DNA of 64,000 nucleotides from Nostocoides sp. (GCA_016716625.1 JADJVJ010000005.1:4237-68236), one strand, 5' to 3'. Shown: positions 19,847-48,210, counted from the stretch's first letter. Program-made: numbers and translations. The notes: generated from the letters alone by a model not told the origin.

Positions 19847-21238
19847 TCAGCTCTCGGTGTGCCCGAGCAGCATGCGCACCTCGGCGGCCGTGGTCACCGA
19901 GCCGGTCGCGACCACCCCGCCGCTGACCCCACCTTCGTCGGCGAGTTCGGCGGCCCGGTCGAGAGCCTCCGGCAACTCCGGCAGCACGCTGACCCGGTGC
20001 TCCCCAAAGATCTCCTCCGCGAGCTCCCCGAGCTCCCGCGGCGACATCGCGCGCGGTGAGGTGGTCTTGGTGATGACCACCTCGTCGAGGACCGGTTCGA
20101 GAATCTCGAGCATCTCCGCGGCGTCCTTGTCCTTGAGGATCGCGATGACCCCGACGAGCCGGGAGAAGGTGAACGAGTCCCGCAGCGCCTCCCGCAGGAC
20201 CAGGGCTCCGGCGGGGTTGTGGGCGGCATCGACGAGCACCGTCGGAGAACGGCGGACAACCTCGAGCCGACCCGGTGAACGCGCCGCGGCGAGCCCGGCC
20301 AGCAGCACCTCGAGATCGATCGGTTGCTCCCCTCCCCCGAGGAAGGCTTCGACCGCCGCGATGGCGACGGCCGTGTTCTGAGCCTGATGCGCCCCGTGCA
20401 ACGGCAGGTAGAGCTCGGGGTACTCCCCCGCGAGCCCGCGCACCGAGAGCAGCTGCCCACCCACGGCGACCTCTCGCGCCGTGACACCGAAGTCGTTGCC
20501 CTCGAAGAGAATCCGCGCCCCGACACTCTCGGCACGAGAGCGGAGGATGTCGACGACGTCGAGATCCTCCTGGAGGCCGACGACCGCGATGCCGTCCGCC
20601 TTGATGATCCCGGCCTTCTCGGTGGCGACGTCGGTGACCCGGTCGCCGAGGAAGTGTTGATGGTCGAGCGCGATGGGGGTGATGACCGAGACCGGAGCAT
20701 CGAGCACGTTGGTGGCATCCCAGGCCCCACCCATGCCCACCTCGACGATGGCGACGTCGACCGGGACGTCGGCGAAGACCGCATACGCGATCGCCACCAC
20801 GGCCTCGAAGTAGGTCATCCGCGGCCCGCCGGTCTCCTGGGCTCGGGCGTCCACGAGATCGAGATACGGCGAGACCTCGTCGTATGCCGCCACGAACCGG
20901 TCGACCTCGATCGGGGCGCCGTTGAGGGCCACCCGCTCGCGGATCGTGTGCAGGTGTGGTGAGGTGAACCGACCAGTACTGAGGTCGTGGGCCCTCAGGA
21001 TCGACTCGATGATCCGGGTCGTCGAGGTCTTGCCGTTGGTGCCGGTGAGGTGGATCGCCGGGAAGTTCCGCTGCGGGTCGCCGAGCAACTCCATGACCGC
21101 GGCGATGCGGTCCAGGGAGGGTTGCAGGTCGTGCTCGGGCGCCCGGGAGAGGATCGCCGCCTCGACCTCGCGCATGCGCTGGCGCAGCTCGAGATCGCGG
21201 GCGGAGTCCCGCCAGGAGCGCTCGGGTGGCGAGGTCAC
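19847..21238 (-). CDS. folC: bifunctional folylpolyglutamate synthase/dihydrofolate synthase
   Basis: 463 aa containing [20 protein letters not shown] (Mur-ligase P-loop). Confidence 0.92.
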
Positions 21239-24200
21239 GAGCGGCCGACCCGGATCCGGACACGCTGGCCACCGGAGAGGGCCGCCTCGGCCACGCCGGC
21301 ACCGTCGAGGTCTTCGAGGTGGTGCAGCACCCGCAGGCCGTTCTCGGCGAGGGTCTCGGTGATGAGCAGGTCACGGTGCTCGCGCACCGCCATGACGACC
21401 TGCTCCGAGCCACTCACCTCGAGGGCGATCCGGTCGGAGACCTCCAGCCCGGCCTGTTTGCGAGCATCCTGGACCGCACGGACGAGGTCGCGGGCCACTC
21501 CTTCGAGCTCGAGTTCCGGGGTCACCTCGGTGTCCAGGACGAGGAAGCCGCCACCGGGCAGCATCGCGGCCCGGTGCGAGCCCTGGCTCGTCTCGGCAAC
21601 GACCGTGTCCAGGGTGAACTCGCCGTCGACGAGCTCAAGTCCACCCGCGGTCACCGTGCCGTCGGCCGCGAGGGACCAGTCGCCGGACTTGCTGGCCTGG
21701 ATGGCCCGCTGGACGTCCCGACCGAGCCGGGGTCCGGCCGCGCGGGCGTTGATCGTGAGCCGTTGGGAGATCCCGAAGTCCGACTCATGGGCGATCGACA
21801 CGTCCTTGACGGAAAGCGCCTTGACGTTGAGCTCCTCACGAATGACGGCGGCGAACACCTCGAGCGCGGCCGGGTCCGGGGTGACCACGGTGAGTTCGCG
21901 CAGTGGCTGCCGAACCCGCAACCCCTCGGCCTTGCGCAGCGCCGAACCCACCGAACACACCGCTCGGACCTGGTCCATGGTCGCCACCAGGGCGTCCTCG
22001 CGGGGCAGGTCGGCGGCCGACGGCCAGTCGGTGAGATGCACCGAACGGCCACCGGTCAACCCACGCCAGACCTCCTCGGTGACCAGCGGGAGCAGCGGGG
22101 CCGCGAGCCGGCAGAGCACCTCAAGGGTGGTGTAGAGGGTGTCGAAGGCATCCCGCGCCGCAGTGGTTGACTCGCCGACTCCGGTGTCCCAGAAGCGTTC
22201 CCGCGAGCGCCGGATGTACCAGTTGGTGAGCGTGTCGACGAACCCTCGCACCGAGTCGCAGGCGCCGGCGACGTCATAGGCGTCCATCTGGGCGGTGACG
22301 GTCTCGACCAGCGAACCCAAGGTGGCAAGTAGGTAGCGATCCAGCGGGTCGGTGGAGTCGGTCCGCCACGTCGCCGTATAACCGGCCCCGTCGTCGGTGG
22401 TGAGCGCGTTCGCATAGAGCGAGAAGAAGTACCACGAGCTCCACAGCGGCAGGATGACCTGCCGAACGCCCTCGCGGATGGCGCCCTCGGTGACGATGAG
22501 GTTGCCGCCGCGAAGGATCGGCGAGGACATGAGGAACCAGCGCATGGCATCGGAGCCGTCGCGGTCGAAGACCTCGCGGACGTCCGGGTAGTTCTTCAGC
22601 GACTTGCTCATCTTGAGCCCGTCGTTGCCGAGGACGATCCCGTGCGAGACACACGACTGGAACGCCGGCCGGTCGAAGAGCGCGGTCGCCAGGACGTGCA
22701 TGGTGTAGAACCAGCCCCGGGTCTGCCCGATGTACTCGACGATGAAGTCACCCGGGAAGTGGTGTTCGAACCACTCCTGCTGGGCAAACGGGTAGTGCAC
22801 CTGGGCGAAGCTCATCGACCCCGACTCGAACCAGCAGTCGAAGACGTCGGTGACCCGGCGCATCGTCGAGGCGCCACTGGGGTCATCGGGGTTGGGTCGG
22901 GTGAGTTCGTCGATGAAAGGCCGGTGCAGGTCGCTCGGCCGCACCCCGAAGTCGCGCTCGATCTCCGCGAGGGAACCATAGACATCGGTCCGGGGGAACT
23001 CTGGGTTGTCCGACTTCCACACCGGGATCGGGCTGCCCCAGAATCGGTTTCGTGAGATCGACCAGTCCCGGGTGTTCTCCAACCACTTGCCGAACTGGCC
23101 GTCCTTGACATGCCCCGGCACCCAGGTGATCTCCTGGTTGAGCCGGAGCATGTCGTCACGGATCGTCGTCGTCGAGACGAACCAGGACGACACGGCCATA
23201 TAGATGAGCGGCTGCCGGCAGCGCCAACAGTGCGGGTAGGAGTGGTCGTAGGTCTCGCGTCGCAGCAGCACCGTCCCCGCGGTGATCGAACCGACCTCCC
23301 CGGGTGCTCCGTCGGCGTCGAGCCGGGTGCGCGCCTTGAGGTGGTCGATGACCGGCAGGTTGGCATCGAGGACGAGGAGCCCGGCGTAGTCGGTCACCGG
23401 GTGGGTGAAGTGGCCGTCGATGCCGACCGGCACGACGACCTCGATGCCTTCTCGGTCGGTGATGACCTTGTCGTCCTCACCGAAGGCACCGGCAGTGTGC
23501 ACCAGCCCGGTGCCCTCGGTCGTGGTGACCAGGTCGGCCGCCACGATCCGGAAGGCCTTGGGGTGACCGAGGTAGTAGGACATCGGCGGCGTGTAGTTCG
23601 CCCCCACCAGGTCACGCCCGGTGAGCCGTTGGACGACCAGCGCCTCGACGTCCCCCTTGGCGTCCCCGGTGAACTCCTTGGCGTAGGCCGCGGCCCGCGC
23701 CTGCGCGATGAGATATCGCTCCCTGCGCCCGGTGGGGAGAGCGGACTCGACGAGGACATAGTCGATGTCCTCGCCGACCATGATCGCGAGGTTGCAGGTC
23801 AGGGTCCACGGCGTCGTGGTCCAGATGAGCGCCAGCGCACCGGCATACTCCCCGTCGGTGAGCCGGCACCCGACGGTGACGGCCGGGTCCTGGCGGTTCT
23901 GGTAGACGTCCTCGTCCATCCGCAGCTCGTGGTTGGAGAGCGGGGTCTGGTCGTTCCAGCAGTACGGCAGCACGCGGAAACCCTCGTAGCACAGGCCCTT
24001 GTCGTAGAGCTGCTTGAAGGCCCAGATGACCGACTCCATGTAGTCCAGGTCGAGGGTCTTGTAGTCGTGGTCGAAGTCGACCCAGCGCGCCTGCCGGGTG
24101 ACGTACTCGCGCCACTCGGAGGTGTACTGGAAGACCGAGGTGCGGCAGGCGTCGTTGAAGGCGTCGATCCCCATGTCGCGGATCTCGTCGGTGGTCTTGA

Positions 24201-24549
24201 TCCCGAGCTGGCTCATCGCCTCGAGCTCGGCGGGCAGCCCGTGGGTGTCCCAGCCGAACCGGCGCTCCACCCGCTTGCCGCGCATCGTCTGGTAGCGCGG
24301 GACGACGTCCTTGACGTACCCGGTGAGCAGATGACCGTAGTGCGGCAGCCCGTTGGCGAACGGCGGACCGTCGTAGAAGACGAACTCGTTGCTGCCTTCG
24401 CTCCCGGCGTCGCGCTGCTCGACCGAGGCCAGGAAGGTGCCGTCGGCCTCCCAGTACGCGAGCACGCCCTCCTCGATGGTCGGCAGGCTCGGACTGGCCG
24501 GGACGCCGGCGGATGGGGTGGGGTTGATCGAGACCTTGGGGTAGGTCAT
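21235..24549 (-). CDS. ileS: isoleucine--tRNA ligase (type 2)
   Basis: 1104 aa with [17 protein letters not shown] (HIGH region), KMSKS as [10 protein letters not shown] and WFESGSM. It is preceded by a T-box leader. Confidence 0.95.
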
Positions 24550-24552
24550 GAG

Positions 24553-24790
24553 GCTCGGGCTCCTGCGGTCGTCGGCTCGTTCATCTCACGAGGACGAAGG
24601 CCACCGGCGTATGCCGTGTGGTCACCTCCGCGGTACCACCTCGCTTGCCGCGGGCCGGGCACCCGAGGTGGGCACACGGCATACGACCGCTCTTGTCGTG
24701 GGTGACTGACGGGACCCGACCGTCCGGATCTAGTGGGCGACCCGCTGGCGTGCGGGGGCTGTTCTCCCGGAGGCTCGCCGCTGATGACGG
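24553..24790 (-). promoter_or_regulatory. T-box leader of ileS
   Basis: The minus strand carries the conserved T-box core AGCGAGGTGGTACCGCGG (complement of 24628-24645), about 80 nt upstream of the ileS ATG. A candidate AUC (Ile) specifier is at complement 24727-24729. The 5' boundary is approximate. Confidence 0.7.
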
Positions 24791-24859
24791 CTCGAACGCC
24801 TTTCCAAGGGGCTCAGTCTAGCGGGCGGGGCGGCGGGCGAGGACCGCCTTCGCTTCAGG

Positions 24860-25025
24860 CGCTACAGTGAACGGTGTCGCCGGCTCAGCCGGAGACACCA
24901 CACGCACCCCGTCGGGGGAAGCCGGTGAGAATCCGGCGCTGACCCGCAGCCGTAAGTCGCTCTGCGAAGCGACAAGTCGGAATGCCCGTCAGGGTGCGAG
25001 CGGCTCCACATTCACCGTCGAGGTA
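24860..25025 (+). promoter_or_regulatory. cobalamin (B12) riboswitch
   Basis: It contains GGGGGAAGCCGGTGAGAATCCGGCGCTGACCCGCAGCCGTAAG (the conserved core GGGAA..GGTG..AA.CC....CCCGC..C.GTAA) and the B12-box-like AGTCGGAATGCCCGTC. ACGGTG (24871-24876) with CACCGT (25012-25017) is a possible P1 stem. It lies upstream of an ECF-transporter operon. Confidence 0.8.
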
Positions 25026-25098
25026 CGCGGGACGGAGCCCGAGCGCCCTTGGCGGGGTGGTTCGGGACGACGTCACGAACCGCTCAGAAAGGGACGCC

Positions 25099-26547
25099 AT
25101 GTCCACCCACCCGGCCAGTTTGGCCGTCGTCGCAGCCATGACCGCTGCACTGTCCTTCGGGGCCCCATCGGCGTTTGCCGAGACGCCGACCCCGTCCCCA
25201 ACGCTCAGCCCGAGCGCGAGTTCGACGCCGAGCCCGAGTGCGAGTCCGTCGAGTACGAGTTCGACGCCGAGCCCGAGTGCGAGTCCGTCGAGTACGCCGA
25301 GTCCCCGTCCGACGATGTCGAGCACCCCGGGGCCGAGCAAGGGCACGACCGCCCTGCGGCAGGCGCCGAACGCTCTCGTTGCGGCGGCGACCTCTCCCGA
25401 GGCCGTCCAGGCGGCCTCGGACGCCGCTGCCTACCTCGTCCGGCAGCTCGAGGCCAGTGGCTACGTGCTGCAGAGCTTCGGCTTCCCCGACTACGGGCTC
25501 ACCATCGATGCGATCCTCGGCCTCGACAGCGCGGATGTCGGCCAGGACGCCGCCGCGAAGGCGACCGACCAGGTCGAGGCGAACCTCGGCTCCTACGTCG
25601 GCACCGCGTTCGGCGAGCTCTATGCCGGTGCGGTGGCCAAGTCCCTGCTGCTCGCGCTCGCGCAGGGGCAGGACCCGACCTCCTTCGGCGGACTGGACCT
25701 GATCACCCTGCTCAAGGGCCGCGAGCAGGCCGACGGCCGCTACACCGACGACTCCCAGTGGGGCGACTTCTCCAACGTCCTCGGCCAGTCCATCGCCCTC
25801 ATCGCCCTGTCCCGGGCGGAAGGCACGTACTCGACGACGGCGCTCGACTTCCTCCTCGCGCAGCAGTGCGCCGACGGCGGCTTCCGGCTCAACCACGGCG
25901 CCGACCCGTGCGTGAGTGACCCGGACGCGACCGCCTTCGCGACGCAGGCCTTGCTCCTGCTGCACCGGGGCACCCCGGAGACCACGAAGGCCCTGGACTA
26001 CCTCGAGGCTCTCGTCGGGGCCGATGGCGGTGTCGGTGGTGGGACGAGCACAACCGCGCCCAACGCGAACTCCACCGGACTGGTGGCCCAGGTGCTCCTC
26101 GAAGGAGGTCGAACCTCGGCCGCCGCCCGCGCCCAGGCATTCCTGCTCTCGCTGCAGTACGGCTGCACCCTCCCGGAGGCCCTCCGCGGTGGGATCGCTT
26201 ATGACGCAACGCAGTTCGCCACCCAGACCAAGGCCGGTTCCGGTGCCACCGTGAGCGACACGGATCGGCGCTCGACGACGCAAGCCATCTACGGGTTGAG
26301 TGGGGTCTTCCTCAACAGCGTCACCGCTGCGGAGGACGCCCCCGGGGTGACCCCGATGGACTGCGACGACCCCACGTCGACGCCCACGCCGACGCCGACT
26401 TCGTCGGCACGCGAACTGCCCGCAACCGGCGCGTCCGGGGCCCTTGAAACCGCAGCGCTCGGGCTCGTCAGTGTCTTCGCGGGGCTGCTCCTGCTCGCCG
26501 TGGGCCGTCCGCGGTATCTGCATCGACACGCCGCCCGGCGGCACTGA
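25099..26547 (+). CDS. LPXTG-anchored surface protein with prenyltransferase/terpene-cyclase-like alpha/alpha-toroid repeats
   Basis: Signal peptide (AFA/ET), a Pro/Ser/Thr linker, repeated Q..DGG(F/R) motifs (LLAQQCADGGFRL, GREQADGRY, GADGGVGGG), and a C-terminal LPATG plus transmembrane segment plus RHAARRH sorting signal. Confidence 0.7.
   Translation: MSTHPASLAVVAAMTAALSFGAPSAFAETPTPSPTLSPSASSTPSPSASPSSTSSTPSPSASPSSTPSPRPTMSSTPGPSKGTTALRQAPNALVAAATSPEAVQAASDAAAYLVRQLEASGYVLQSFGFPDYGLTIDAILGLDSADVGQDAAAKATDQVEANLGSYVGTAFGELYAGAVAKSLLLALAQGQDPTSFGGLDLITLLKGREQADGRYTDDSQWGDFSNVLGQSIALIALSRAEGTYSTTALDFLLAQQCADGGFRLNHGADPCVSDPDATAFATQALLLLHRGTPETTKALDYLEALVGADGGVGGGTSTTAPNANSTGLVAQVLLEGGRTSAAARAQAFLLSLQYGCTLPEALRGGIAYDATQFATQTKAGSGATVSDTDRRSTTQAIYGLSGVFLNSVTAAEDAPGVTPMDCDDPTSTPTPTPTSSARELPATGASGALETAALGLVSVFAGLLLLAVGRPRYLHRHAARRH
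25218..25295 (+). repeat. perfect 2 x 39 bp tandem duplication inside the Pro/Ser/Thr linker of the LPXTG protein
   Basis: Unit GAGTTCGACGCCGAGCCCGAGTGCGAGTCCGTCGAGTAC occurs at 25218-25256 and again at 25257-25295 with 100% identity. Confidence 0.95.
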
Positions 26548-26548
26548 C

Positions 26549-27352
26549 ATGTCGGCTTCTCGGCTGCTCGGCGCGCTCGGCCTCGCGGGGGCGCTCGCCC
26601 TTGGCGCGGTCGGCGCCGCCGGACCCGCGCATGCCGCCGCCTGCTCGGGGACCAGCGGGGTGACCGTCGTCATCGACACCGGCTCGTCGGTGACTACCCG
26701 GTGTGCCGCCGGTGACCCGGCGTCGGCCATGTCCGCCCTGACGTCGGTCGCCACGGTGGTCACCCCGGCGGCCTACCCCGGGGCGGTCGTCTGCCGGATC
26801 GACGGCTTCCCCGCCTCCGACCCCTGCGTGCGGATGCCCCCGTCGAGCGCCTACTGGGCGTTCTACTACGCCTCCCGTGGGGGCTCGTGGACCTACAGCA
26901 GCGTCGGCACCGCGTCCTACAACCCGGCACCCGGCACGGTCGTGGGGTTCCGGTTCGGCTCCGGACAACAGCCGAGCATTGCGCCCCCGGCTGCCCCGGC
27001 CTCCCCTAAGCCAACCCCGAAACCGACGACTCCCAAGCCCACGGCAACCACGCCAGCACCGACGAAACCCGCGAGGAACACGCTCGCACCCCGGCCGACC
27101 GCAGCAGTGAGCCAAGGTCCTTCGGCGAGCCGGTCGGCGAGCCCGAGCGCCACCCCCTCTGCTTCCCCGTCGGGATCGGCCACGGCGAACGCCTTACCGG
27201 CCCCGTCGCTCACCCCGAGTGCCGCCGAGGGGCCCCGGACGACCTCTGGCTCCTCCCCCGGCGCCCTCGGCGCCGCGGCCGCTGGCCTCATCGTCCTCAC
27301 CCTCGGTGGGGCGGGGGCCATCGCCGTGCGCCGCCGTTCCCAAGACAACTGA
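26549..27352 (+). CDS. secreted, C-terminally membrane-anchored DUF4430-like (transcobalamin beta-domain-like) protein
   Basis: Signal peptide, then GVTVVIDTGSS...RIDGFPASDPC...YWAFYYASRGGSWTYSSVGTASYNPAPGTVVGFRF, which follows the DUF4430 pattern as I remember it. A Pro/Thr linker and a terminal transmembrane helix follow. Confidence 0.5.
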   Translation: MSASRLLGALGLAGALALGAVGAAGPAHAAACSGTSGVTVVIDTGSSVTTRCAAGDPASAMSALTSVATVVTPAAYPGAVVCRIDGFPASDPCVRMPPSSAYWAFYYASRGGSWTYSSVGTASYNPAPGTVVGFRFGSGQQPSIAPPAAPASPKPTPKPTTPKPTATTPAPTKPARNTLAPRPTAAVSQGPSASRSASPSATPSASPSGSATANALPAPSLTPSAAEGPRTTSGSSPGALGAAAAGLIVLTLGGAGAIAVRRRSQDN

Positions 27353-27357
27353 ACCGT

Positions 27358-28485
27358 ATGTCGTCCGGTCCGCTCCCCCGTGAGCTGCACCCCGCCGCGT
27401 GGTGGGTGTGGGCCATCGGACTGGCCGTTGCCGTGAGCCAGAGCAGCAACCCGCTGCTCCTTCTCATCGCCCTCGGTGTCGTCGGCCTCGTCGTCCTGGC
27501 GAGGCGCGGCGGTTCACCGTGGGCGCGGGCGTTCCGGCTCTACCTTTGGCTCGGGCTGTTCATCATCGCGGTCCGGGTCGTGCTGCATGTCCTCGTCGGC
27601 TACAAGGTCGGCGACCACGTCCTGGTGAGCTTGCCGACCGTGACCCTGCCCTCGTGGGCCGCGGGCATCACCCTCCTTGGGGACATCAGGCTCGAAGGTC
27701 TGCTGCTCGCGATCGTCCTCGGTCTTCGGCTTGCCGTGATGATCGCCTGCATCGGCGCCGCAAACGCGCTCGCCAACCCCAAGCGGCTGCTGCGGACCCT
27801 TCCCGGAGCACTGCATGAGATCGGGTCCGCGGTCGTGGTCTCGGTGAGCGTGGCGCCGCAACTCGCCGAGAGCGTCCAGCGGGTGCGCCGAGCACGGGAA
27901 CTCCGCGGCGAGGCCGCCCGGGGCCTGCGGGGCCTGCCGGCGATCGCGCTGCCGGTCCTTGAGGACACCCTCGACCGCTCGCTGCTGCTCGCCGCGGCGA
28001 TGGATTCCAGGGGCTATGGGCGATCGGCGGATCGCCCGGAGAGCCGGCGCCGGCTGACCTCGTCGCTCACCCTGGTCGGGCTGTTGCTCAGCGCGGTGGG
28101 CATCTACGGGGTTCTCGACGCGAGCACCTCGCCGCTGCTCGGTGCCCCTGCCCTCATGTGTGGGCTGGCGCTGGCTCTCGCCGGGCTATGGACCGGTGGG
28201 CTGGGAGCCGGGCGCACGACATACCGGCCAGACCCCTGGCGCGGCGCGGAGTGGGTGACGGTCGGCAGCGGCATCGCCGCCGCGGTGACGGCGGTCCTCG
28301 CCGCCCGGTGGGCACCCGAGGCCATGATCCTGCCGGTCGAACCACTGTCCTGGCCCGAGTTGCCCTTGCTCGCGGTCGCGGGACTGCTGCTGGGGGCTGC
28401 CCCCGCCTACCTCACGCCGGTGCCCCCGCAGGCGACCCGGCGCTCGGGTCCCACCCGGAGGGCTCTGGTGACCAGCGATGGCTGA
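27358..28485 (+). CDS. ECF transporter transmembrane (T) component, CbiQ family
   Basis: 375 aa polytopic protein with the conserved ARELRG...LLAAAMDSRGYG region. Confidence 0.85.
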   Translation: MSSGPLPRELHPAAWWVWAIGLAVAVSQSSNPLLLLIALGVVGLVVLARRGGSPWARAFRLYLWLGLFIIAVRVVLHVLVGYKVGDHVLVSLPTVTLPSWAAGITLLGDIRLEGLLLAIVLGLRLAVMIACIGAANALANPKRLLRTLPGALHEIGSAVVVSVSVAPQLAESVQRVRRARELRGEAARGLRGLPAIALPVLEDTLDRSLLLAAAMDSRGYGRSADRPESRRRLTSSLTLVGLLLSAVGIYGVLDASTSPLLGAPALMCGLALALAGLWTGGLGAGRTTYRPDPWRGAEWVTVGSGIAAAVTAVLAARWAPEAMILPVEPLSWPELPLLAVAGLLLGAAPAYLTPVPPQATRRSGPTRRALVTSDG

Positions 28486-30253
28486 GGCGATCGTTCTGGA
28501 GGGGGTGAGCCTCACCCTGCCCAACGCCGGTGAGCCCACCCTGAGCGGCGTCGACCTCGTCATCCCCGAGGGTGAACTCGCGCTCGTCGTGGGACGCACC
28601 GGGTCGGGCAAGTCGACCCTGCTCGGCGCGATCTGCGGACGGGTGCCGCACTTCACCGGGGGAACCCTCACCGGCCACGTCCGCATCCACGGCCGGGACA
28701 CCCGCCAGCACCGCCCGCGCGACCTCGCCGACCTCGTGGGGGTCGTCGGGCAGGACCCGCTCGCCGGGTTCGTCACCGACACCGTCGATGAGGAACTCGC
28801 CTACGGGATGGAGCAGTTGGGGCTCCCACCTGCAACGATGCGCAAGCGGGTCGAGGAGACCCTCGACGTCTTGGGCATCGCGGACCTTCGCGGGGCGGCA
28901 CTGCGGGAGCTGTCTGGAGGGCAACAGCAGCGGGTGGCCATCGGGTCGGTGCTCACCGCGCATCCGCGGGTCATCCTCCTCGACGAGCCGACCTCCGCGC
29001 TCGACCCGACTGGGGCCGAAGAGGTGCTCGCGACGATCACCCGGCTCGTCCACGACCTCGGAGTGACCGTGGTCGTCGCCGAACACCGGATCGAGCGGGT
29101 CCTGCACTATGCCGATCTCGTCGTCCATGTCGGCGACGCGCGGGTCGAGGTCGGCAGCCCGGCTGAGGTCATGGAAACCTCGGACGTCGCCCCTCCGGTC
29201 GTCGAGCTCGGACGGCTTGCCGGGTGGTCTCCGCTGCCGCTCTCGGTCCGGGATGCCCGCCGGGCCGCCCGCTCCCCCGGCCTGCCGGGCGACCTAACCT
29301 CTGCTAGCAGAGGTTGGTTTCAGAACCACATGACGCATCCTTCGGTCCTTCCCCGAAGTTCTGCTAGCAGAGCTTCGGTCTGGGCGGGGGGTTCGGGCGT
29401 GGGAGCGGGTGCGGGTGCGAGCGTGGGTGCGGCCGCGGGGAGTTCGGCGGCCCTCAACCCGGCGGTCTCGGGGCGCCAGGTCGTCGTGACGTACCCGGGC
29501 GGGGTCCTCGCCGTCGCCGGGGTGGACCTCGACCTGTATGCCGGTCAGGTCACCGCCCTCATGGGGCGCAACGGCTCCGGCAAGTCCTCCCTCCTCTGGG
29601 CGCTTCAGGGCACCGGTACCCGCACCTCCGGTGAGATCACCGCCACCGACTCCACCGGCGCCCGGGTCGATCCCGCCGGCCTGCGCCCCGGAGAACGCCG
29701 GCGGATCGTCGGCATGGTCCCGCAGACCGCCTCGGACCTGCTCTACCTCGAGACCGCGGCCGCCGAATGCGCCCAGGCCGACCGGGAATCCGGCGCCGCC
29801 CCCGGCACCGCCGCGAGCCTCGTCCTCGACCTCGTCCCGGACGTTGACCTCGGTGCGCACCCCAGAGACCTCAGCGAGGGCCAGAAACTCGCCCTCGTCC
29901 TGGCCGTCCAGCTCACCGCACGTCCCCCGGTCCTGCTCCTGGACGAGCCGACCCGCGGACTGGACTACGACGCCAAGGCCGCGCTGAGCAAGGTCATGCG
30001 CCACCTGGCCAGCCAGGGGCGCGCGGTTGCGGTGAGCACCCATGATGTCGAGTTTGTCGCCGAGTGCGCCGACCGGGTGCTCGTCCTCGCTGGCGGCGAG
30101 GTCGTTGCCGACGGACCGACCGCGGACATCGTCGTTGCCTCCCCCGCCTACGCCCCCCAGGTGAGCAAGATCCTCGGCGGCCCCTGGCTCACCGTCGACG
30201 ACGTCCGGGCCGTGCTCAGCGGGGTCGCGAAGACCTCGGGGAGTATGCCGTGA
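28478..30253 (+). CDS. fused double ATPase of an ECF/ABC transporter (EcfA1-EcfA2 / CbiO-like)
   Basis: Two ABC cassettes: GRTGSGKSTL...LSGGQQQRV...LLDEPTS and GRNGSGKSSL...LSEGQKLAL...LLDEPTRGLD. An unusual linker is encoded by 29290-29450. Confidence 0.9.
   Translation: MAEAIVLEGVSLTLPNAGEPTLSGVDLVIPEGELALVVGRTGSGKSTLLGAICGRVPHFTGGTLTGHVRIHGRDTRQHRPRDLADLVGVVGQDPLAGFVTDTVDEELAYGMEQLGLPPATMRKRVEETLDVLGIADLRGAALRELSGGQQQRVAIGSVLTAHPRVILLDEPTSALDPTGAEEVLATITRLVHDLGVTVVVAEHRIERVLHYADLVVHVGDARVEVGSPAEVMETSDVAPPVVELGRLAGWSPLPLSVRDARRAARSPGLPGDLTSASRGWFQNHMTHPSVLPRSSASRASVWAGGSGVGAGAGASVGAAAGSSAALNPAVSGRQVVVTYPGGVLAVAGVDLDLYAGQVTALMGRNGSGKSSLLWALQGTGTRTSGEITATDSTGARVDPAGLRPGERRRIVGMVPQTASDLLYLETAAAECAQADRESGAAPGTAASLVLDLVPDVDLGAHPRDLSEGQKLALVLAVQLTARPPVLLLDEPTRGLDYDAKAALSKVMRHLASQGRAVAVSTHDVEFVAECADRVLVLAGGEVVADGPTADIVVASPAYAPQVSKILGGPWLTVDDVRAVLSGVAKTSGSMP
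29296..29376. repeat. two palindromes sharing the core CTGCTAGCAG (20 bp perfect at 29296-29315; 22 bp with one mismatch pair at 29355-29376) plus two small hairpins between them
   Basis: AACCTCTGCTAGCAGAGGTT is its own reverse complement. The second palindrome is GAAGtTCTGCTAGCAGAgCTTC. Between them are TGGTT-tcag-AACCA (29315-29328) and CTTCGG/CCGAAG (29340-29345 with 29353-29358). By eye the region is about 50% GC against a background of about 70%. Confidence 0.9.
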
Positions 30254-31044
30254 GCACCCCGCTGGTCGTCGCACCCACCTCTCGGGCCATTGCGATCCGC
30301 CCGAGATCGGTTGTGGCACTGGCCCTGGTGAGCACCGCGGGACTGTTGGCCTTCCTCTGGCCGCTCATCGTCACGAGGGACTCCGCACTGGCGACCTCGA
30401 CCGATGCCCCGCTCATCTTCGCGGCGATCCTGCCGCTGCTGCTCGCCGTCGTCCTCGCCGAGATCTCCGAGGGCGGCCTCGACGTCAAGGCCATTGCCAT
30501 GCTCGGGGTGCTCTCGGCGGTCGGGGCCGCCCTGCGCCCGCTCGGTGCCGGCACCGCCGGCCTGGAAACCGTCTTCTTTCTCCTCGTCCTCGGGGGCCGG
30601 GTTTTCGGTGCCGGGTTCGGTTTTGTCCTGGGCGCCACCACCCTTTTCGCCTCCGCCCTGCTCACCGGGGGCGTTGGGCCGTGGTTGCCCTTCCAGATGA
30701 TCGCCGCGGCCTGGGTCGGGCTCGGTGCGGGCCTGCTTCCGGCGGCGCGCGGCCGCGCCGAGATCGTCCTGCTCGCGGCATACGGGGGCCTCTGTGGTCT
30801 CCTCTACGGGCTCCTCATGAACCTCTCCTTCTGGCCGTTCTCGACCGGGCTCACCTCAGAGCTGTCGTTCGTGCCCGGCGGCGGTCTCGGCGAGAACCTG
30901 CACCGGTTCGTCGTCTTCTCGTTCGCCACCTCGCTCGGCTGGGACCTTGGCCGGGCGCTGACCAACATCGTCCTGGTCGCGGTGACCGGTCCGGCGGTTC
31001 TGCGCGCCCTCCGCCGGGCAGCGCGCCGGGCCGCGTTCGCCTGA
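30250..31044 (+). CDS. ECF-transporter substrate-capture (S) component-like membrane protein
   Basis: GTG 30250 overlaps the stop of the ATPase gene. 264 aa with about seven hydrophobic helices. It is the last gene of the riboswitch operon. Confidence 0.55.
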   Translation: MSTPLVVAPTSRAIAIRPRSVVALALVSTAGLLAFLWPLIVTRDSALATSTDAPLIFAAILPLLLAVVLAEISEGGLDVKAIAMLGVLSAVGAALRPLGAGTAGLETVFFLLVLGGRVFGAGFGFVLGATTLFASALLTGGVGPWLPFQMIAAAWVGLGAGLLPAARGRAEIVLLAAYGGLCGLLYGLLMNLSFWPFSTGLTSELSFVPGGGLGENLHRFVVFSFATSLGWDLGRALTNIVLVAVTGPAVLRALRRAARRAAFA

Positions 31045-31068: not shown

Positions 31069-31608
31069 ATGAGCCCCCTGGAGCTGCACCGAGAGTCGGC
31101 GTGGCTGAGCCGTGAGGACCTTGACGCGGCGCGTGAGCGGCTGCCCATCCTCTATGTCGACGCGGTGCCCGTGCGGGTGGATGATCGCGGGGCGGTCACT
31201 GCCGTCGGCCTTCTCCTGCGGATCGGTCCGGATGGCGGCATGTGCCGGGAGCTCGTCTCCGGGCGGGTGCTGTATCAGGAGCGAGTCCGCGACGCCATTC
31301 TGCGGCATATCGAGAAGGATCTCGGGCCGGTCGCGCTGCCGCAGGTTCCGCCGAGCCCGCAACCGTTCACCGTGGCCGAGTACTTCCCCACCCCGGGGGT
31401 CACGCCGTATCACGACCCGCGGCAGCATGCCGTCTCGCTGGCTTTTGTGGTCCCGGTCACCGGGGACTGCGCCCCGCAACAGGACGCCCTGGACCTCACC
31501 TGGCTGAGCCCTCAGGAAGCATGCCAGAGCGCGGTGATCGCCGAGATGGACCGCGGCCACGGGGTGCTCCTTCGGCAGGCCCTCGCCCACCTCGGCCACC
31601 CGCTCTGA
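31069..31608 (+). CDS. NUDIX-fold-like protein (DUF4916-like)
   Basis: 179 aa. The family assignment comes from overall pattern memory only (LPILYVDAVPVRVDDRG...LLLR). Confidence 0.4.
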   Translation: MSPLELHRESAWLSREDLDAARERLPILYVDAVPVRVDDRGAVTAVGLLLRIGPDGGMCRELVSGRVLYQERVRDAILRHIEKDLGPVALPQVPPSPQPFTVAEYFPTPGVTPYHDPRQHAVSLAFVVPVTGDCAPQQDALDLTWLSPQEACQSAVIAEMDRGHGVLLRQALAHLGHPL

Positions 31609-47955: not shown

Positions 47956-48029
47956 TGGAGCCGGCGACGAGAATCGAACTCGCGTAGCCAGTTTGGAAGA
48001 CTGGGGCTCTACCATTGAGCTACGCCGGC
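47956..48029 (-). tRNA. tRNA-Gly (anticodon UCC)
   Basis: The minus strand GCCGGCGTAGCTCAATGGTAGAGCCCCAGTCTTCCAAACTGGCTACGCGAGTTCGATTCTCGTCGCCGGCTCCA folds as a cloverleaf with anticodon loop CTTCCAA. CCA is encoded. Confidence 0.88.
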
Positions 48030-48136: not shown

Positions 48137-48210
48137 CGGGGTGTGGCGCAGTTTGGTAGCGCGTCCGCTTTGGGAGCGGAAGGCCGCAGGTTCAAGTCCT
48201 GTCACCCCGA
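48137..48210 (+). tRNA. tRNA-Pro (anticodon UGG)
   Basis: CGGGGTGTGGCGCAGTTTGGTAGCGCGTCCGCTTTGGGAGCGGAAGGCCGCAGGTTCAAGTCCTGTCACCCCGA folds as a cloverleaf with anticodon loop TTTGGGA. Confidence 0.88.

Follow-up and report, generated by a model that had tools for sequence, protein, structure and literature searches.

A cobalamin riboswitch operon of Nostocoides joins a wall-anchored toroid and a transcobalamin-like β domain to an ECF transporter: a probable B12-scavenging system

Within a 64,000-nt stretch of DNA from the actinobacterium Nostocoides sp. (GCA_016716625.1, JADJVJ010000005.1:4237-68236; hereafter the window), five + strand genes, g1 to g5, follow a cobalamin (vitamin B12) riboswitch and span positions 25099-31044. 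They encode, in this order, a wall-anchored α/α-toroid protein, a stalked protein with a domain resembling the β domain of transcobalamin, and the components of a transporter of the energy-coupling factor (ECF) type, i.e. the coupling component EcfT, a fused EcfA-A' double ATPase and an S-component-like protein. Only 1 nt separates g1 from g2 and 5 nt separate g2 from g3, g3 and g4 overlap by 8 nt (ATG..TGA) and g4 and g5 by 4 nt (GTGA), and we therefore regard the genes as translationally coupled. A riboswitch ahead of five co-directional, tightly spaced genes had been described in a first-pass annotation of the window, which had also proposed that the two surface proteins form a two-chain B12 scavenger, and this arrangement is indeed present.

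The element that had been called a cobalamin riboswitch passes the Rfam cut-off for one: the aptamer at 24893-25007 (+) matches the covariance model RF00174 over its full span (model positions 1-189) with 43.3 bits against a gathering score of 31.5 (E 1.4e-7, scan of the whole window), and the match was reproduced when the sub-region was rescanned. At 115 nt the aptamer is short, with hardly anything left of the model's two long variable insertions. It is followed by a leader, read from the sequence as the expression platform (25008-25098, +), in which the ribosome-binding site of g1, GAAAGGGA, stands 5 nt ahead of the ATG, g1 thus starting 92 nt downstream of the aptamer. In its minimum free energy fold the leader forms two GC-rich hairpins before the ribosome-binding site (z = -2.0). 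A promoter/terminator scan found no intrinsic-terminator-like site in the leader, no promoter-like site and a single terminator-like site, which lies inside g5 and stays below the shuffle counts, and an Rfam E-value scan of 24400-25250 returned neither a T-box nor a second RNA element. At low intracellular cobalamin the riboswitch would permit expression of the five coupled genes. We infer that the operon is B12-repressed, and the manner in which the riboswitch would shut it off is part of this inference.

The first gene, g1 (25099-26547, +), encodes a SCO2321-like protein of 482 amino acids (aa), in which a signal peptide (..SAFA/ETP) and a Pro/Ser/Thr-rich stretch precede a domain of ~340 aa. 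Its C-terminus reads LPATG-ASGALETAALGLVSVFAGLLLLAVG-RPRYLHRHAARRH, i.e. an LPATG motif, a hydrophobic segment and a basic tail, with a transmembrane segment at residues 446-473. The Pfam model Gram_pos_anchor matches weakly (E 0.045), and the host genome contains one sortase gene (107.9 bits); the earlier assignment of g1 as a sortase-anchored protein stands on the LPATG motif, the transmembrane segment, the basic tail and this sortase gene. In the AlphaFold (AF2) model the ectodomain is an α/α toroid of 14 helices (predicted local distance difference test, pLDDT, 94.7; predicted template modelling score, pTM, 0.91). The top PDB matches of this model in Foldseek are squalene-hopene-cyclase-like proteins, drimenyl diphosphate synthase and prenyltransferase (GGTase) β subunits, and rat transcobalamin is retrieved at ranks 21-22 (E 3e-5, TM-score 0.55). 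Thus, of the earlier suggestion that g1 is a toroid of the intrinsic factor/transcobalamin kind, the fold and the retrieval of transcobalamin can be retained, but the enzyme toroids rank higher. At the sequence level Pfam Prenyltrans matches g1 weakly (E 0.17) and homologues bear PF13243. The g1 family shares the conserved motif C-x-S-D-P-D-A-T-A, and the Asp that would complete the D-x-D-D of class II cyclases is found in none of 40 family members, Ala, Val, Thr, Ser or Gly standing in its place, where the equivalence of the positions is by motif resemblance only.

The SCO2322-like product of g2 (26549-27352, +; 267 aa) begins with a signal peptide, which is followed by a ~115-aa domain containing four conserved Cys residues, by a Pro/Thr/Ser linker of ~90 aa, and by a C-terminal membrane helix (residues 237-262) and a basic tail. 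We considered it as a lipoprotein and rejected this, as the first Cys is one of the four conserved ones and lies far from the signal peptide in fusion proteins; this Cys more probably takes part in a disulfide. The AF2 model of the domain (pLDDT 94.6) is a β-grasp with a 34-residue insert, carrying short β bridges, after helix 33-40, as is typical of transcobalamin-type β domains. Its 12 best PDB matches in Foldseek are all β domains of transcobalamin, intrinsic factor or haptocorrin, with probabilities of 0.90-1.00, and the matches that come after them have probabilities below 0.5. Compared with the isolated β domain of human transcobalamin (5no0, 5np4), the model reaches TM-scores of 0.60-0.67 at a root-mean-square deviation of 3.4-4.5 Å. 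The resemblance to the intrinsic factor/transcobalamin β domain that had been proposed is hence borne out.

The description of g2 as DUF4430-like holds in part: Pfam DUF4430 (PF14478) gives no match to g2 even at E<=10, and homologues of g2 are annotated with PF28005, but a homology to DUF4430 repeats can be traced. An exhaustive phmmer search with g2 retrieved 1730 cluster representatives at E<=1e-3, among them P0304 (E 6.8e-25, 9 stretches), a protein that according to Pfam combines 10 DUF4430 domains with a Prenyltrans toroid and SLH domains. BLASTP aligns g2 with one of these DUF4430 repeats over the whole domain (E 5e-10, 26% identity, 100 columns), and judged by this alignment the g2 domain is homologous to bona fide DUF4430 repeats.

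Toroid and β domain are also naturally fused, and this in both orders. In P0058 and P0064 a g2-like domain is followed by a g1-like toroid and a LAQTG anchor (β-α-LPXTG), and P0381 consists of a toroid, two β domains and CWB2 wall-binding repeats (α-β-β); g1 itself matches the toroids of such fusions with E 2e-8 (P0381) and 2e-5 (P0304). Neither g1 nor g2 nor the g2 family gave a PDB sequence match to transcobalamin or intrinsic factor in single-sequence and profile searches, which returned low-complexity matches only, and the link to transcobalamin rests on fold comparison together with transitive sequence homology. In NCBIfam, g1 matches SCO2321_fam alone (NF053823; E 1.3e-28, 100 bits against a cut-off of 300) and g2 SCO2322_fam alone (NF040672; E 2.6e-7, 31.1 bits against a cut-off of 85). 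As both scores are far under the cut-offs, the window proteins are relatives rather than members of these equivalogs, which are centred on Streptomyces and whose names carry no function.

The gene set recurs throughout the class. In a sample of 301 Actinomycetes genomes, a single-protein search found a g1 homologue in 82, i.e. in 81 besides the host genome, and RF00174 matches were located in 80 of these 81 (G295 was left out). For 75 of the 86 g1 homologues in the 81 genomes, an RF00174 match precedes the matched region on the same strand by 154-1249 nt, so that the co-occurrence with B12 riboswitches across Actinobacteria, which had been raised in the first-pass annotation, is seen within this class. 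Among the 11 loci without a riboswitch match, two begin <300 nt from a contig end and a third is the one in G295. The matches linked to the operon make up about half of all riboswitch matches in operon-bearing genomes (75/146), and in 48 of the 81 genomes the riboswitch of the operon is the sole cobalamin riboswitch detected. Operon-linked aptamers are short, many matching only model positions ~45-169. The Rfam gathering score is exceeded by 42 of the 75 linked matches and missed by 33, and standard annotation therefore probably under-counts them. The order g1-g2-EcfT-EcfA-A'-S is kept in most of the 60 loci that were fetched with flanks, and a hidden Markov model (HMM) of the g2 domain matches 51 of the 60, nearly always between g1 and EcfT. 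As the arrangement recurs together with the riboswitch across the class, it is not due to chance.

About a quarter of the sampled Actinomycetes genomes carry this same operon, including large genomes of 7-8 Mb with 6-9 cobalamin riboswitches. Its spread is patchy: no g1 homologue is present in 13 genomes that belong to the same order (families f2-f4) or in the same-family genome G128, and the operon occurs in many families of the class that are more distant. In some large genomes a single ECF module is preceded by two tandem toroid/β pairs, both of them with a separate riboswitch match, and in others an additional g2-like gene follows the S component; loci of these two kinds are L040 (G220:C1:670359-683359), L051, L058 and L068. 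In a subgroup of loci the g2-like β domain is circularly permuted (L086:4131-5057, L081, L085, L087, L088, L091, L093-L095 and L098). Here a single open reading frame contains the 'YWxYW...SWTY...GWRF' half first and the 'VVVDFG...C...C' half second, so that positions ~72-126 of the g2 HMM are matched ahead of positions ~21-70. The tblastn matches of the toroid are likewise order-swapped in several of the permuted loci, e.g. L081, L085, L087, L088 and L095.

The three remaining genes encode the transporter. The 375-aa product of g3 (27358-28485, +) matches the EcfT-type family CbiQ (PF02361) above the Pfam cut-off (E 5.2e-10, 39.8 bits against 25), and counterparts with 42-64% identity are found in 55 of the 60 homologous loci. 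The 591-aa product of g4 (28478-30253, +) contains two ABC_tran stretches (Pfam, E 7.7e-49) and passes the cbiO subfamily model TIGR01166 ('cobalt ABC transporter'; 221.6 against 211.8). It also matches ECF_ATPase_1/2 with E 1e-75 to 1e-77 and remains under the equivalog cut-offs of these models because it is a fusion. Both assignments of the first-pass annotation, EcfT for g3 and a fused EcfA1A2 ATPase for g4, are thus confirmed. The last gene, g5 (30250-31044, +), encodes a polytopic membrane protein of 264 aa with multiple hydrophobic segments, 52-76% identical across the class, which is presumably the substrate-capture subunit; the Pfam family ECF_trnsprt is matched by 23 of 28 g5 orthologues at E<=0.01 (best 1e-10). 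A CbiQ-family T gene alongside two EcfA-type ATPase domains, as found here, characterizes dedicated (group I) ECF transporters.

The host depends on B12. Its genome (2.93 Mb, 95% complete) encodes the B12-dependent methionine synthase MetH (1627 bits, above the cut-off) and methylmalonyl-CoA mutase (MCM; 1173 bits), which are among seven matches to B12-binding domains, and the one cobalamin riboswitch found in it is that at 24893-25007. CobS was not found in the host genome, and the best CobQ match reaches 30.7 bits against a cut-off of 309.9. With MetH and MCM present and no CobQ or CobS found, the host therefore needs complete corrinoids from outside, and the operon is most likely a B12-scavenging system of an actinobacterium that uses B12 without making it. 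One of the B12-binding-domain matches of the genome (27.4 bits, under the Pfam cut-off) belongs to a protein whose N-terminus is of the MerR type (L008, G000:C1:286731-289904) and which, as read from its translation, may be a regulator of the CarH/LitR kind that responds to light in a B12-dependent manner.

Systems of this type have been predicted before. Burroughs, Balaji, Iyer and Aravind (2007, Biol Direct 2:4; PMC1796856) defined a transcobalamin-like clade of the SLBB β-grasp superfamily whose members are fused to toroids in either order, carry signal peptides and Gram-positive anchors and have CbiO/CbiQ neighbours; the hosts lack B12 synthesis, and a role in B12 scavenging was proposed. 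The operon in the window agrees with this description in its secreted transcobalamin-like SLBB domain, toroid partner, signal peptides and anchors, CbiO/CbiQ-type neighbours and a host in which no CobQ or CobS was found. It differs in being actinobacterial, the clade having been listed in low-GC Gram-positives, planctomycetes and some archaea and not in Actinobacteria, in the distribution of toroid and β domain over two separate genes and in a β domain too divergent for Pfam DUF4430; moreover, the link to a B12 riboswitch is seen here class-wide.

A split pair beside an ECF transporter has been described as well, by Verplaetse et al. (2019; bioRxiv 10.1101/864751; here as far as the passages considered go), for lsa1836-1840 of Lactobacillus sakei. 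These five genes encode an S component, a fused A-A' ATPase, EcfT, the transcobalamin-β-like Lsa1839 and the transcobalamin-α/GGTase-like Lsa1840, the latter two being modelled as a split heterodimer that feeds the ECF transporter. Compared by description, the five components are those of the window, whereas gene order and anchoring differ, heme is assigned as substrate, and a riboswitch is not mentioned in these passages. Thus, the two-chain B12 scavenger is less novel than the first-pass annotation implied, since the idea had already been put forward in PMC1796856 and a split pair is described in 10.1101/864751. The split, actinobacterial, riboswitch-linked form is a divergent, yet common and coherent, example of a predicted type of system, and the window operon adds one more example and not a new principle.

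Two further comparisons are instructive. Mammalian transcobalamin, intrinsic factor and haptocorrin (2bb6, 2pmv, 4kki, 5no0, 8ixu) share the combination of a toroid and a small β domain with g1 and g2. The bacterial proteins, however, are two chains encoded 1 nt apart and anchored in wall and membrane instead of being soluble, they show no match to Pfam Cobalamin_bind, and they would bind the corrinoid and deliver it to an ECF importer instead of an endocytic receptor. ECF-CbrT of Lactobacillus delbrueckii, an ECF-type importer of cobalamin and cobinamide (PMC5997447), resembles the transporter part of the operon with its EcfT, two ATPase domains and S component. Its ECF module is of the shared type (group II), and it works without extracytoplasmic proteins, whereas the module in the window is dedicated and riboswitch-controlled. 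With 264 aa g5 is longer than CbrT and without detectable sequence similarity to it, and as the profile of its orthologues matched no solved S component we do not file g5 as CbrT.

Based on these findings we regard the operon as a corrinoid uptake system in which the two surface proteins act as binders, and assign this interpretation a probability of roughly 0.75. The computed evidence thus supports the two-chain scavenger proposed in the first-pass annotation, which had not foreseen two of the lines of evidence, namely the natural fusions and a host that uses B12 but in which no CobQ or CobS was found. In this interpretation, the toroid protein g1 would be exported and fixed to peptidoglycan by sortase, whereas the β domain of g2 would be held from its membrane helix on a flexible stalk of ~90 residues, like on a leash. 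The two proteins may then clamp a corrinoid between them, as the α and β domains of transcobalamin do, and hand it over to the membrane S component g5, from where the dedicated EcfT/EcfA-A' module would import it at the expense of ATP hydrolysis.

Several observations weigh against this interpretation. The g5 protein itself stays under the gathering score of ECF_trnsprt (PF12822-type; E 6.3e-6, 26.8 bits against 30.7), and a profile of its orthologues shows no sequence similarity to solved S components, CbrT included. Neither Cobalamin_bind nor DUF4430 is found by Pfam on g1 or g2 at E<=10, where only the weak Prenyltrans and anchor matches appear. The Foldseek E-values of the g2 domain matches are only 0.01-0.1, and the modelled g1 toroid is no closer to transcobalamin than to terpene cyclases and prenyltransferases, so transcobalamin does not stand out in the fold search with g1. 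CobQ and CobS cannot be taken as strictly absent from a host genome that is 95% complete. Finally, the sole experimental study of a split pair, that of L. sakei, argued for heme and not for B12.

Other explanations were weighed against this one. The ECF module and its S component might import B12 alone, with the surface pair having another role during B12 scarcity, e.g. binding a different corrinoid or a lower-ligand precursor, storing B12 in the wall or helping the 1.3-kDa ligand through the thick wall. Characterized ECF transporters need no extracytoplasmic binding protein (PMC5997447) and the toroid fold is generic, but the matches of the g2 domain point specifically to that part of transcobalamin, intrinsic factor and haptocorrin which contacts B12, fusions of the two domains occur repeatedly, and the genes of the pair almost always stand directly before the ECF genes and behind the riboswitch, which makes a separate role of the pair unlikely. 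The enzyme-like matches of g1 could, on the other hand, mean that it is an extracellular terpene-cyclase/prenyltransferase-type enzyme that sits in the operon for reasons other than ligand capture. Its best structural matches, squalene-hopene-cyclase-like proteins, drimenyl diphosphate synthase and GGTase β subunits, and the weak Pfam matches to Prenyltrans and SQHop_cyclase agree with this. Yet the final Asp of D-x-D-D-T-A is absent from 40/40 family members, as far as motif resemblance can tell, isoprenoid diphosphates are not expected outside the cell, where g1 is wall-anchored, and proteins of the g1 type are fused to or adjoin B12-type β domains, so that we consider an enzyme extremely improbable.

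The substrate might also not be cobalamin, but a different tetrapyrrole or a metal, e.g. heme, a cobinamide/cobyrinate-type precursor or, as for CbiMNQO, cobalt. That g4 passes a subfamily model named for cobalt transport is in line with the last of these, and B12 riboswitches, as Rodionov et al. reportedly found in 2003, also govern cobalt transporters in B12 producers. For this host, in which neither CobS nor CobQ was found, cobalt or incomplete corrinoids would be unusable for B12 synthesis; moreover, the operon bears the sole cobalamin riboswitch of a genome whose MetH and MCM need to be supplied. Heme, in turn, is how deletion and complementation were read in L. sakei (in the passages considered of bioRxiv 10.1101/864751), but a heme importer would have no reason to be repressed by B12 in 75/86 loci. 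A substrate other than cobalamin is thus improbable, and corrinoid uptake with g1 and g2 as binders is the interpretation we prefer.

The B12 uptake of Gram-positive bacteria, and of Actinomycetes especially, is poorly known, as transporters of the BtuFCD type and ECF-CbrT cover some lineages only. Being present in about a quarter of the sampled Actinomycetes genomes and bearing the sole cobalamin riboswitch detected in most carrier genomes, the operon qualifies as a strong candidate for the principal corrinoid importer in these bacteria. If the pair clamps B12, ECF transporters would be able to use extracytoplasmic binders, the architecture of animal transcobalamin would have a working two-chain counterpart in bacteria, and a handle would be at hand for studying how soil, skin and gut communities compete for B12. 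The stricter version, in which the SCO2321/SCO2322-type pair amounts to a genuine two-part transcobalamin, with a wall-fixed toroid and a leashed β domain that close on a corrinoid and feed the S component of a dedicated ECF transporter, we see as an even bet. If it applies, a widespread class of ECF transporters would as a whole depend on extracytoplasmic binding proteins, against the textbook view, and the operon would constitute the main high-affinity entry route for B12 in Actinomycetes.

Next to the operon, a DUF4916/NUDIX gene (31069-31608, +) begins 24 nt past g5. It was considered as a sixth member and rejected: of the 60 loci, only one, from a genome of the same family (L039), has this gene beside the cluster. 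It therefore lies outside the unit and is probably a mere neighbour. On the other side, an isoleucyl-tRNA synthetase gene (21235-24549, -) is divergent from the operon, and in the ~300 nt upstream of it (24550-24890) neither a T-box nor any other Rfam family was detected at E<=1. Farther away, the window contains two divergent tRNA genes, at 47959-48029 (-) and 48137-48210 (+), which match the Rfam tRNA model with 69.9 and 68.7 bits.

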